Assembly: GCA_048881705.1 (NCBI GenBank)
Contig: JBHLSH010000037.1
Span: 1-35,375, forward strand
Reading direction: 5' to 3'
From: Candidatus Heimdallarchaeota archaeon
GTDB lineage: Archaea; Asgardarchaeota; Heimdallarchaeia; Hodarchaeales; Hodarchaeaceae
Length of the DNA stretch: 35,375 bases
Below are positions 22,232-29,679 of the stretch, in pieces. The notes under the pieces are model-generated. The model was not told the origin of the DNA, searched no databases, and was given only the letters and a program-made list of their open reading frames with translations. The translations under genes and the position numbers were made by a program. Each line of letters starts with the position of its first letter. The stretch's first letter is position 1.

Positions 22232-23185
22232 TCAATATAATCCTAGTTCTCGAGCATTAACACAAAATGCAGGTTTTTGTCCCGTAAGGACTAAACGAAC
22301 TTGTTCTGCAATAACTTGGCCCGCCCTTTCTTGGGCCTCTTGTGTCGAAGCGGCAATATGTGGGGAGGCATAAAGATTCTCTAGTTCAAAAAGCTTGCTT
22401 TCTCTGGCAGGTTCAACAGTGAACACGTCCAAGGCGGCCCCAGCAATTTGATTTTTATTAAGTGCTGTATATAATGCTTCTTCATCGATGATTCCGCCAC
22501 GAGCACAATTAACTATGAATGCAGTCGTTTTCATCTTTTCAAATTCGTGAGTACTAATCATTCCTCTAGTTTCTTGCGTTAGTAGGGCATGAACAGTAAT
22601 AAAATCGGAAATCTCAAATAGATGTGAAAGCTCGGTAGTTTGCTCCGCACCGATTTTCTCGAATATATCCGCTGGCAAATAGGGATCATAAACCAGACAT
22701 CTCATACCAAACGCCTGGGCGCGTTTAACCACCTCTGCACCTATCCGACCACAACCTACAAATCCTAAAATTTTATCATGTAGTTCTGTACCTCCCAATT
22801 GTTTCTTGGGCCATAATCCCTCTTTAGTTTGGTTCGTGGCATGAACTAGCTTGCGACTCAAGGCGAGAAGATAACCCATGGTCAATTCCGCCACTGAAAT
22901 TGTGGAAGCATGGGGGGAATTTACTACATAGATCTGTTGTTCCGTGGCAGCAGTCACATCTATGTTATCAAATCCGACACCTGCTCGTCCTATAACTCTT
23001 AACTTTTTTCCCTTTTCTATTACTTCTCGAGAAACTTGAGTGGCACTACGCACGATAATGGCCTCAAAAGTTTCAATCTGTTGCAGGAGTTCATTAGGAC
23101 TGTAGTGTTGTTCCACTACATGAAATTCGTTTTTCAATACCGCAACCGCGGAGGACGTAATTGGATCAGAGACCAGTATTTTCAT
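22232..23185 (-). CDS. serA: D-isomer-specific 2-hydroxyacid dehydrogenase, SerA (phosphoglycerate dehydrogenase)-like, no ACT domain
   Basis: [53 protein letters not shown]. Substrate not proven. Confidence 0.8.
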
Positions 23186-23364
23186 TTGGATACTCCCATG
23201 ATGCTATTGATGCTTATTGGAATGGGTCGTTTCGCACTCATATTACCAGTCACATAAACCTACCTAACAGATCAAAGATATTTTTAATCTCCAAAAATAA
23301 GGCTTCCCTACGTATCTCCGTGTGGAATGTTGCGGTACCGCAGAACCTAAAGGAGGTCACTAAA

Positions 23365-23928
23365 ATGAATGCTTACAAGTTTATATCCGCGTTCTGGAAT
23401 GAACGGAGTTCTGAATTTAAGCAACTCCGTATTGCGCGATTGGTTGAGTGGCGGCGCCAACCGTCAGTTATTCGAATTGAATTTCCTACTCGGTTAGATC
23501 GGGCTCGAAAACTTGGTTATCGTCGAAAAAAGGGGTTTATAGTTGCCCGTACTCGTGTTCCTAGAGGGGGCCGCAGGAAATCCCGCCCCGTGGGTGGGCG
23601 TCGTTCCAGACGAATGGGAGTTAACAAGATAACTCCAAAGAAATCCCGTCAGTGGATTGCAGAAGAACGAACAGCTCGTCGATTTCCAAATCTAGAAGTC
23701 CTTAATAGCTATCCTGTCCTAGAGGATGGAAGATATCGATGGTTCGAAGTAATCTTAGTCGACCCCCATGCTCCCGAAATAAAATCCGATCCAAAAATCA
23801 ATTGGATCTGCGATCGGAGCCATCGAGGACGCGTTTTCCGTGGAAAAACCTCAGCGGGCCGTAAAAGCCGTGGTCTCAGAGGCCGTGGAAAAGGACATGA
23901 GCATCATCGACCCTCTTATGATCGTTGA
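23365..23928 (+). CDS. rpl15e: 50S ribosomal protein L15e
   Basis: [66 protein letters not shown] before ATG 23365; the track start at 23161 is too long. Confidence 0.97.
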
Positions 23929-24054
23929 TAACGTACCTAGCGGCTTTGCTTCCTTTCATGATCCCAAATTTGTCCTTCTCACCTTGTTATTAGAAGATTA
24001 ATCCGATATTTGATCAACTCGATCCAATCAGAGGTTGTGTATAGCCTGCCTCGA

Positions 24055-24783
24055 ATGTTTATCGACTCTTTTTCGGCGGAGGTTTCCGAGCACAAACTGG
24101 AGATATGTCTAAGGGTTGCAAAATACCTAGGATTTTCACAGGTATGGATTAGCAATCCTACAAAAGCCACTAAGAAAATTCTAGGGCAATCAACAAATCA
24201 AGAATATCCCAAAATTATTTACCGGATCGATTTCGGGGAGAATGATAATGATAAAGCAAGAGTAATATCCGTTCTACGACAACAACGTCGTCAATTCCCT
24301 ATAATTGCCATCACATGTGCTACTCCCGATGTTACCGCATGGGCAGCACAGGATAACCGTATTGATATTTTAAAGTTCCATCCTTTTGAAATTGGCAAGT
24401 TGCTTACTCGATCGGTAGCTAAACTCATGAATGATCATAATAAATGTCTGGAAGTTTCCTTAACCGATATTTATACCCTTCCCTATCGTAGTCACATCGC
24501 TGCTATCCGCAATATCAGAAATGCTTTTGCTATGATCCTCCAGAAACACGTTTCCTACATTTTTTCCTCTGGCGCAACCAGTATTGAACACATACGAACC
24601 CCACGCGAACTTGCGTCCTTGGGGCAGATCCTCCTGAAAAATGCTCATCTTCCTCTAGACGCTCTAAGCGTGACTCCTCAGAGTCTTCTTACTCAAAATC
24701 TTCGAAAAATCAATCCGGAGTATGTTATCCCTGGTATTTTCAAAATTAATCCATCAAATCATCCTAAGTTCGAGGAAGAGTGA
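24055..24783 (+). CDS. rnp3: Ribonuclease P protein component 3 (Rpp30)
   Basis: PHP-like pattern (A.QDNRIDIL, LEVSL, IFSSGA....IRTPREL), downstream of rpl15e. Start may be GTG 24037. Confidence 0.85.
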   Translation: MFIDSFSAEVSEHKLEICLRVAKYLGFSQVWISNPTKATKKILGQSTNQEYPKIIYRIDFGENDNDKARVISVLRQQRRQFPIIAITCATPDVTAWAAQDNRIDILKFHPFEIGKLLTRSVAKLMNDHNKCLEVSLTDIYTLPYRSHIAAIRNIRNAFAMILQKHVSYIFSSGATSIEHIRTPRELASLGQILLKNAHLPLDALSVTPQSLLTQNLRKINPEYVIPGIFKINPSNHPKFEEE

Positions 24784-25178
24784 CTTCAATGGATGAACGC
24801 ATTCGCTACATCAATATTCGGATGATTGGTCTGTTCTCACTGACAGAGAAGGACGCGTGGCATGTTATCTCAACTGAAATCAGACGTCTAGTTGGGGCAG
24901 CAGGTGCAGCGGACATAGGCCTATTTCTGGCGTTTTTTGACCCAAAAAGCCAGGGCGGTATCTTCAGGGTTGCCCATCGATACATCCATCGTGTCAGAGG
25001 GGCCTTGTGTTTTATCCAGAAATGGAACCAAAATCCTATTTTCACTTATTCGGAAAATGTAAGCGGAACTCTCAAAACTGCTAAAAAGGAACTTTTGAGC
25101 GCTGGACACCTTCACCGTGCCAGTGTTCTTACCAAGATCTTTCATAACTATTGGAAATCAAGTTTCGATGATGATTAA
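24780..25178 (+). CDS. rnp2: Ribonuclease P protein component 2 (Pop5/Rpp14)
   Basis: RIRYI, RRLVG..G.A..G, GIFRV.H...RVRGAL, VSGTLKTAKK. GTG overlaps the rnp3 TGA. Confidence 0.85.
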   Translation: MTSMDERIRYINIRMIGLFSLTEKDAWHVISTEIRRLVGAAGAADIGLFLAFFDPKSQGGIFRVAHRYIHRVRGALCFIQKWNQNPIFTYSENVSGTLKTAKKELLSAGHLHRASVLTKIFHNYWKSSFDDD

Positions 25179-25222
25179 TATCTAACCGAAGTCCGTGTCG
25201 ACGCCGTCCCAGTCTGAGAAAC
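25162..25222 (+). ncRNA. Box C/D guide sRNA, predicted to guide 2'-O-methylation of the LSU rRNA P-loop G (E. coli G2251 equivalent)
   Basis: Stem GTTTC/GAAAC, 3-nt bulge, C box ATGATGA 25168-25174, D' CCGA 25186-25189, C' GTGTCGA 25195-25201, D CTGA 25214-25217. D guide GCCGTCCCAGT pairs with RCUGGGGCGGY. Confidence 0.88.
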
Positions 25223-25396
25223 CTTTGAGGGTTCCCAATAACCTAGGGCAAAACTTTGAGTAGAAGTTTCAAATAATTAATAATCGAGATTCGAATAAAT
25301 GAAATAAATCTTGGAAAGTCAAAAATAAATGATAATGAACCCAGCTCGTTTGTACAGCTCTTCATTGATTGTGAAAAACTTTTTAGACGTTTTTTT

Positions 25397-29617: not shown

Positions 29618-29679
29618 CAAGCTGTGACGAAACTGACCTAAACTGAAGCCCAGCTCGGATTAGGACACCTTTGAGCTTG
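29618..29679 (+). ncRNA. Box C/D dual-guide sRNA (predicted SSU and LSU rRNA targets)
   Basis: Stem CAAGC/GCTTG, 3-nt bulge, C GTGACGA 29624-29630, 12-nt guide, D' CTGA 29643-29646, degenerate C', 12-nt guide, D TTGA 29671-29674. Guides are complementary to UAGGUCAGU (archaeal 16S) and AGGUGUCCUAA (LSU H81). Confidence 0.85.

Follow-up and report, generated by a model that had tools for sequence, protein, structure and literature searches.

The window analysed here, a stretch of 35,375 nt, carries on its forward strand at positions 25162-25222 an element that is very probably a genuine archaeal box C/D guide RNA, most likely derived from the 3' end of the rpl15e-rnp3-rnp2 transcript and guiding methylation of the P-loop of 23S rRNA. 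The element displays the full anatomy of this class of RNAs, is conserved throughout the genus with covariation in its terminal stem, and contains a guide that is complementary in register to the P-loop. It resides in a genome (3.96 Mb, 41% G+C) of an archaeon, a Heimdallarchaeia/Hodarchaeales-type Asgard, which encodes the proteins expected to act with it: fibrillarin (PF01269, 252 bits), Nop5 encoded by the adjacent gene (PF01798, 222 bits) and L7Ae (PF01248, 87 bits).

Anatomy of the element at 25162-25222

The element comprises the following parts, all on the forward strand.

25162-25222, + strand: whole predicted box C/D sRNA, 61 nt (covariance model R1, 74 bits, E 6e-13; single copy in the genome)
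25162-25166, + strand: terminal stem, 5' strand GUUUC (DNA GTTTC), within Pop5 codons; partner of 25218-25222
25167-25169, + strand: kink-turn bulge GAU, 3 nt, by direct reading of the sequence
25168-25174, + strand: C box AUGAUGA (DNA ATGATGA), invariant in alignment A1
25175-25185, + strand: D' guide UUAAUAUCUAA, 11 nt, orphan, variable among relatives; the Pop5 stop TAA lies inside
25186-25189, + strand: D' box CCGA, degenerate (CUGA in most relatives; alignment A1)
25195-25201, + strand: C' box GUGUCGA (DNA GTGTCGA), degenerate; family consensus RUGNNGA (alignment A1)
25202-25213, + strand: D guide CGCCGUCCCAGU (DNA CGCCGTCCCAGT), 12 nt; C25209 is N+5, opposite the second G of the P-loop GGGG
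25214-25217, + strand: D box CUGA (DNA CTGA), invariant
25218-25222, + strand: terminal stem, 3' strand GAAAC, covarying with 25162-25166

The 5-bp stem directly abuts the D box, and 3 nt (GAU) separate it from the first GA of the C box, which is the layout of a box C/D kink-turn. The D spacer measures 12 nt and the D' spacer 11 nt here (12 nt in most relatives), with a loop of 5 nt between the D' and C' boxes; archaeal box C/D sRNAs typically have spacers of about 12 nt and measure about 50-70 nt in all. The window genome has CCGA and GUGUCGA as D' and C' boxes, where its relatives mostly have CUGA and RUGNNGA; degenerate C'/D' boxes are common in archaea. Direct reading of the sequence bears out, at every coordinate, the description given in the earlier note, which had proposed the GTTTC/GAAAC stem, the kink-turn spacing and the D', C' and D boxes. 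The same note had built the C box from the GAT GAT GAT codons at the end of Pop5, with an overlap of 17 nt between RNA and coding sequence, and this agrees with an open reading frame at 24780-25178 and an sRNA start at 25162.

A strict scan for C/D elements, asking for canonical geometry, a stem of at least 4 bp and all four boxes at the correct spacing, returned 25162-25222 and no other site from the 3.96-Mb genome; five shuffled genomes yielded nothing. When only a C box, a D box and the stem were asked for, 14 sites were found in the genome and 2-11 in the shuffles; boxes and stem alone are weak evidence for a C/D sRNA. The single-sequence fold of the element is not more stable than those of its shuffles (z = +1.5), and C/D RNAs usually fold no more stably than shuffled sequences. 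In Rfam, no family reached its gathering threshold in the window. The best match, sR22 (15.4 bits against a threshold of 40), was rejected as a family identity, as the weak match is generic; about 20 Rfam C/D families match 25162-25222 weakly, with the same bounds and on the + strand. By its sequence features the predicted RNA belongs to the box C/D class and to no curated Rfam family.

A second C/D-like sRNA is found at 29618-29679 (+), with a CAAGC/GCUUG stem and UUGA as D box. The earlier note had placed its target in the large-subunit rRNA, about 32 nt from the P-loop site, a result that we could not reproduce: the best match of its D guide is to the genome's own 16S rRNA, around position 1130, with 9 Watson-Crick pairs and one G-U. 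A further C/D-like arrangement, TGATGC ... CTGA ... CTGA, lies antisense to the 3' end of rpl15e (23851-23906, -); its C box is non-canonical, and its stem reaches at most 7 bp if G-U pairs are counted. A 9-mer scan of the window for further guides yielded only noise.

Conservation in the genus and overlap with Pop5

DNA search, covariance model and pattern search recovered the sRNA, in one copy each, from 19 of the 21 other genomes of the genus (Hodarchaeota/Heimdallarchaeota-labelled Asgard MAGs) in addition to the window genome, although genus kin are not independent and counts across the genus overstate the statistical weight. The two genomes lacking it (71% and 86% complete) also lack a Pop5 hit, and the locus is therefore probably unassembled in them. 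Among 18 aligned sequences (alignment A1), no change is seen in the C box, in the D box or in the CCGUCCCAG portion of the D guide, which is invariant in 20 genomes of the genus, whereas the D' guide varies at most positions. Pop5 itself is 40-58% identical at the protein level in most relatives and 85% in the closest one (G001). The base next to the D box (N+1) is U, G or A, a variation tolerated by the N+5 rule.

The five core pairs of the terminal stem are nearly always formed across the 18 sequences, and three of them show compensatory changes, switching between C-G/U-A or A-U/G-C/G-U. Overall, 23 cells are changed on both sides, a value reached by none of 500 shuffles, and the signal breaks down once the 3' partner is shifted by 1-3 columns. 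Because the 5' strand is read as Phe or Leu codons, amino-acid-changing substitutions there are compensated on the non-coding 3' strand. Genus-wide presence, invariant boxes, stem covariation and the encoded fibrillarin, Nop5 and L7Ae thus all support the initial call of an sRNA at this locus.

Upstream of the RNA lies a cluster of three genes, and sequences on either side of the RNA may form an additional helix.

23365-23928, + strand: rpl15e, ribosomal protein L15e, first gene of the cluster, probable start (PF00827, E 2.5e-75)
24010-24783, + strand: rnp3, RNase P protein Rpp30 (PF01876, E 7e-16)
24780-25178, + strand: rnp2, RNase P protein Pop5 (PF01900, E 3.7e-12)
25150-25157, + strand: possible external helix, upstream arm AUUGGAAA, Pop5 codons; duplex with 25232-25239
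25232-25239, + strand: possible external helix, downstream arm UUCCCAAU; weak in the window genome

The rpl15e open reading frame spans 23161-23928; since the PF00827 domain begins only at residue 71, the ATG at 23365 is the probable start. Pop5 ends in ...SSFDDD, encoded by TTC GAT GAT GAT TAA, with the Asp codons at 25167-25175 and the stop at 25176-25178. Comparison of Pop5 3' ends (loci L005-L019, L026, L050, L070, L103 and L107) revealed that the stop codon moves relative to the RNA. It follows the C box, after DDD or DDE, in the window genome and in G001, G003, G013 and G016; in seven species it is the TGA of the D' box CUGA, the frame crossing the C box and the whole D' guide; in three species it is the first TGA of the C box, and in two it lies 15 nt upstream of that box. 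The acidic tail [FL][DN]D[DE] is seen solely in species whose frame continues across the C box, whereas ATGATGA does not vary even in those in which the Pop5 frame stops upstream of it or within it. GAT accounts for all 22 Asp codons that are limited to the C box, compared to 74% of Asp codons genome-wide, and the base directly after the C box varies freely (alignment A1). Because the tail accompanies only read-through of the C box, because its codons are all GAT and because the next base is free, the DDD tail of Pop5 is best regarded as a by-product of the RNA and not as a conserved feature of the protein. At the nucleotide level the tail is constrained, ATGATGA being retained whatever the position of the stop.

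The order L15e, Rpp30, Pop5, sRNA is kept in all 17 relatives for which enough flanking DNA is available, while the GNAT gene found downstream in the window is not conserved in relatives; co-transcription of the sRNA with the operon is therefore favoured. We infer that the sRNA would be processed from the rpl15e-rnp3-rnp2 transcript, as the earlier note had proposed, which fits both the synteny and published archaeal sRNA biogenesis (PMC7994747).

The possible external helix pairs Pop5 codons (e.g. AGUUGGGAAC) with sequence downstream of the RNA (GUUCCCAACU). It was noted in the window and at loci L006, L011, L005, L106, L019 and L119 of the relatives; in 10 of 20 genomes it is significantly more stable than in shuffles, reaching 10 perfect bp in G003 and G008; other sequences fill the role in G021, G006 and G002. 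In the window genome the duplex amounts to -9.1 kcal/mol, which 4.7% of shuffles equal, and the helix is absent from the single-sequence MFE fold. Many relatives also share a conserved UAUUAAG motif after the stem.

The P-loop as probable target of the D guide

The P-loop of the window genome is not in its assembly: the contig ends within the 23S rRNA gene, at model position 2078, and no further piece of the gene was found. The P-loop sequence was accordingly taken from a genus-mate (G005:C44), the 23S of which is 83% identical to that of the window genome over 1078 nt; it reads GUACUGGGGCGGUAAGC. With this P-loop (ACUGGGGCGGU) the D guide forms 11 contiguous bp, two of them G-U, and the genus consensus guide CACCGUCCCAGU forms 11 bp with a single G-U. 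All genus members have an internal G-U, opposite G2253; the second one, in the window genome, is at the far end of the duplex. The GGGG and the U before it we take to be U2249, G2250, G2251, G2252 and G2253 in E. coli 23S numbering, so that the second G corresponds to G2251. The pairing proposed in the earlier note, 11 bp with one or two G-U and C25209 facing the second G, is thus recovered on the 23S of the genus-mate.

Of all sites in the 16S, 23S and tRNAs tested, the P-loop matches the D guide best. The same anchored run is reached by 6% of shuffled window-genome guides and by 1% of shuffled consensus guides in 4.8 kb of rRNA; taken alone, the complementarity is only modestly significant. 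The assignment is convincing because the guide is frozen in the genus, because the register is exact and because the same guide recurs in other phyla (see below), and the D guide most likely targets the equivalent of G2251. This equivalent is among the few universally conserved 2'-O-methylations of rRNA (PMC11121408). The U at guide position 25207, which forms the G-U wobble opposite G2253, is fixed genus-wide; the sister family has C. It is also found in the guides of Thermoproteales, Nitrososphaerales and Undinarchaeota, though the search pattern required it.

The D' guide of the window genome has no target above chance in rRNA or tRNA, 57% of shuffled guides doing equally well, in line with the previous description of this guide as lacking a convincing target. 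The D' guides of several relatives (G005, G019, G008, G014 and G002) are complementary at 8-10 of 12 positions to the 23S sequence UCAGGUAAGUUC, located in the region of helix 71, around position 2056 of the window genome's 23S. The RNA may thus once have had a second target, since lost in the lineage of the window genome. The C'/D' half, the guide of which overlaps or borders the Pop5 coding sequence and its stop, has decayed into an orphan.

The domain V region of 23S is missing from 20 of the 22 genus assemblies and held by two. The 23S genes of the window genome (end of G000:C9) and of G001 (G001:C38) break at the same model position, 2078, which suggests an insertion, intron or repeat defeating assembly. 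A complete archaeal 23S in the G001 bin (G001:C57, L034/L044) was rejected as a source of the P-loop: it is only 64% identical to the 23S of the window genome, its P-loop context, GGUGGGGCGCC, is unusual, and it is probably a contaminant contig. Likewise, a published table equating Haloarcula Gm1950 with E. coli Gm2251 (PMC11542601) was left unused, as it conflicts with the placement of Gm1950 at E. coli position 1909, in helix 69 (PMC2584109).

Counterparts in other lineages and alternative readings

An identical guide, followed by the D box, occurs in C/D sRNAs of Pyrobaculum oguniense, Thermoproteus, several Nitrososphaerales and one Undinarchaeota MAG, and the sister family within the same order carries a fully Watson-Crick guide, CCGCCCCAGU. 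These RNAs share with the window sRNA the core CCGUCCCAGU followed by CUGA, the N+5 register and the dual-box architecture, but their neighbours (a metallophosphoesterase, a HAD hydrolase, a GluRS-like gene or none) do not include Pop5. The sister family, too, has different neighbours. A linkage to Pop5 beyond the genus was consequently rejected, and the association appears to be a feature of this genus. Outside the boxes and the guide no similarity to the RNAs of other archaea is detectable, and the resemblance is therefore compatible both with common descent and with convergence. In searches with patterns for P-loop guides, which would miss variant boxes, 400 Asgard genomes scanned for the D position gave matches only in this order and in a single further genome, and 83 genomes of the class scanned for the D' position gave nothing but the C' boxes of the same RNAs. 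The counterparts from Pyrobaculum and the other phyla match no Rfam family, and none of the Rfam snoRNA families for the G2251 site matched the sRNA, even weakly. A literature search retrieved no description of C/D sRNAs in Asgard archaea.

The arrangement closely resembles known archaeal cases. Most archaeal C/D sRNA genes have no promoter of their own, approximately 25% overlap the 3' end of an ORF including its stop, about half of those within the C box, and guides overlapping coding sequence tend to be orphans while the other guide is functional (PMC7994747, PMC6009581). As in these RNAs (PMC7994747; category 2 of Pyrobaculum, PMC6009581), the stop here falls within or next to the C or D' box, the guide under the overlap is an orphan, its partner being presumably functional, co-transcription is likely, and the overlap is conserved among orthologues. 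Unlike those known before, the present sRNA belongs to a mesophilic-type Asgard host with few obvious sRNAs and has Pop5 as its partner gene, and its overlap is kept in 20 of 22 genomes with the stop at four positions. Methylation of the G2251 equivalent was predicted in three of seven archaea (PMC4644070). In eukaryotes, the same P-loop G is modified in an RNA-guided, fibrillarin-dependent manner (yeast snR67, 25S Gm2619; plant and human Gm2620 and Gm4196; PMC11121408, PMC11542601), but the snoRNAs are longer, often intronic, and associated with Nop56, Nop58 and Snu13. Bacterial RlmB introduces the same modification at the same nucleotide (Gm2251), but is a stand-alone SPOUT methyltransferase without guide RNA (PMC11542601).

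Several other readings of the locus were weighed against that of a P-loop guide processed from the operon transcript. That the motifs merely resemble a C/D RNA by chance, through Asp codons at a gene end, has a negligible probability: GAT is the common Asp codon (74%), so that GATGATGA can arise by chance, and TGA and CTGA are short, but shuffled genomes contain no such sites, the stem covaries, ATGATGA is invariant regardless of where the frame ends, and the guide is invariant while Pop5 identity drops to 40%. It is unlikely, although the idea deserves some weight, that a real guide RNA is transcribed here from its own promoter inside the Pop5 coding region. Around 20% of archaeal C/D sRNAs do have their own promoters (PMC7994747), and several relatives have A/T-rich, TATAA-like stretches some 15-25 nt before the stem; these stretches are, however, too near the stem for a standard archaeal TATA box, are not conserved (e.g. 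in G008 and G017), and the tight linkage to the upstream operon, with none to the downstream gene, favours co-transcription. The archaeal TATA box is normally centred near -26.

Very unlikely is the possibility that the D guide has a different partner, be it another rRNA site, a tRNA or an mRNA, or that it only assists folding as a chaperone and directs no methylation. With the conserved U that faces G2253, the guide would match ACUGGGACGG perfectly; the assembly lacks one third of the 23S, and only 18 tRNAs were detected in the genome. Yet ACUGGGACGG was not found in the genome's own 16S, in the 5' part of its own 23S, in the 23S fragment of the genus-mate, in the full 23S of a class-mate or in the tRNAs; the sister family uses the fully complementary CCGCCCCAGU; and a guide shared by distant phyla calls for a target that is conserved universally, as the P-loop is. 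L7Ae is a subunit of archaeal RNase P as well as of C/D RNPs, and one might see in the element chiefly a kink-turn by which the 3' end of the pop5 mRNA binds L7Ae, so as to regulate or stabilise the RNase P/ribosomal operon transcript, with methylation absent or secondary. The kink-turn lies inside the pop5 stop region in every genus member and is often bracketed by the external helix, and L7Ae binding to mRNA kink-turns with a regulatory effect has been proposed in archaea (PMC5539422). We consider this scarcely probable, since a kink-turn alone explains neither a 100% conserved D guide of 10-12 nt beside a drifting D' guide nor the same guide in the unrelated gene contexts of other phyla. 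A regulatory role of L7Ae is possible only as an added function. It is in this form rather doubtful, but conceivable, that the embedding in the pop5 stop region is itself functional, the kink-turn recruiting L7Ae and setting translation or stabilisation of the operon mRNA against release of the P-loop guide; if true, the embedded kink-turn would couple the supply of an RNase P subunit to ribosome maturation.

Predicted function and significance

Under the preferred reading, that of a P-loop guide RNA from the operon transcript, L7Ae would bind the kink-turn, to which the C box, the D box and the 5-bp terminal stem all contribute, after which Nop5 and fibrillarin would assemble on the sRNA and exonucleases would trim the transcript to a protected RNA of 61 nt. 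The 12-nt D guide would then pair with the P-loop (helix 80) of nascent 23S rRNA, and fibrillarin would methylate the 2'-OH of the nucleotide that pairs with the fifth base before the D box, at the equivalent of E. coli G2251. Expression of the sRNA, its co-transcription and processing, and the methylation itself are predictions from comparative sequence analysis.

If correct, the finding adds an apparently unannotated guide RNA to a Hodarchaeota/Heimdallarchaeota-type Asgard lineage in which few guide RNAs are documented. It extends known archaeal C/D rules to a new lineage and overturns nothing in current understanding. The locus also offers a clean natural example of sequence sharing by a guide RNA and a protein gene, in which the C box would dictate an Asp-rich tail and, within the shared sequence, the stop codon moves, the overlapped guide decays and the free guide is frozen. 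Finally, a universally conserved 2'-O-methylation of rRNA, which is entrusted to a stand-alone enzyme in bacteria and to snoRNAs in eukaryotes, is predicted to be RNA-guided in this Asgard lineage.
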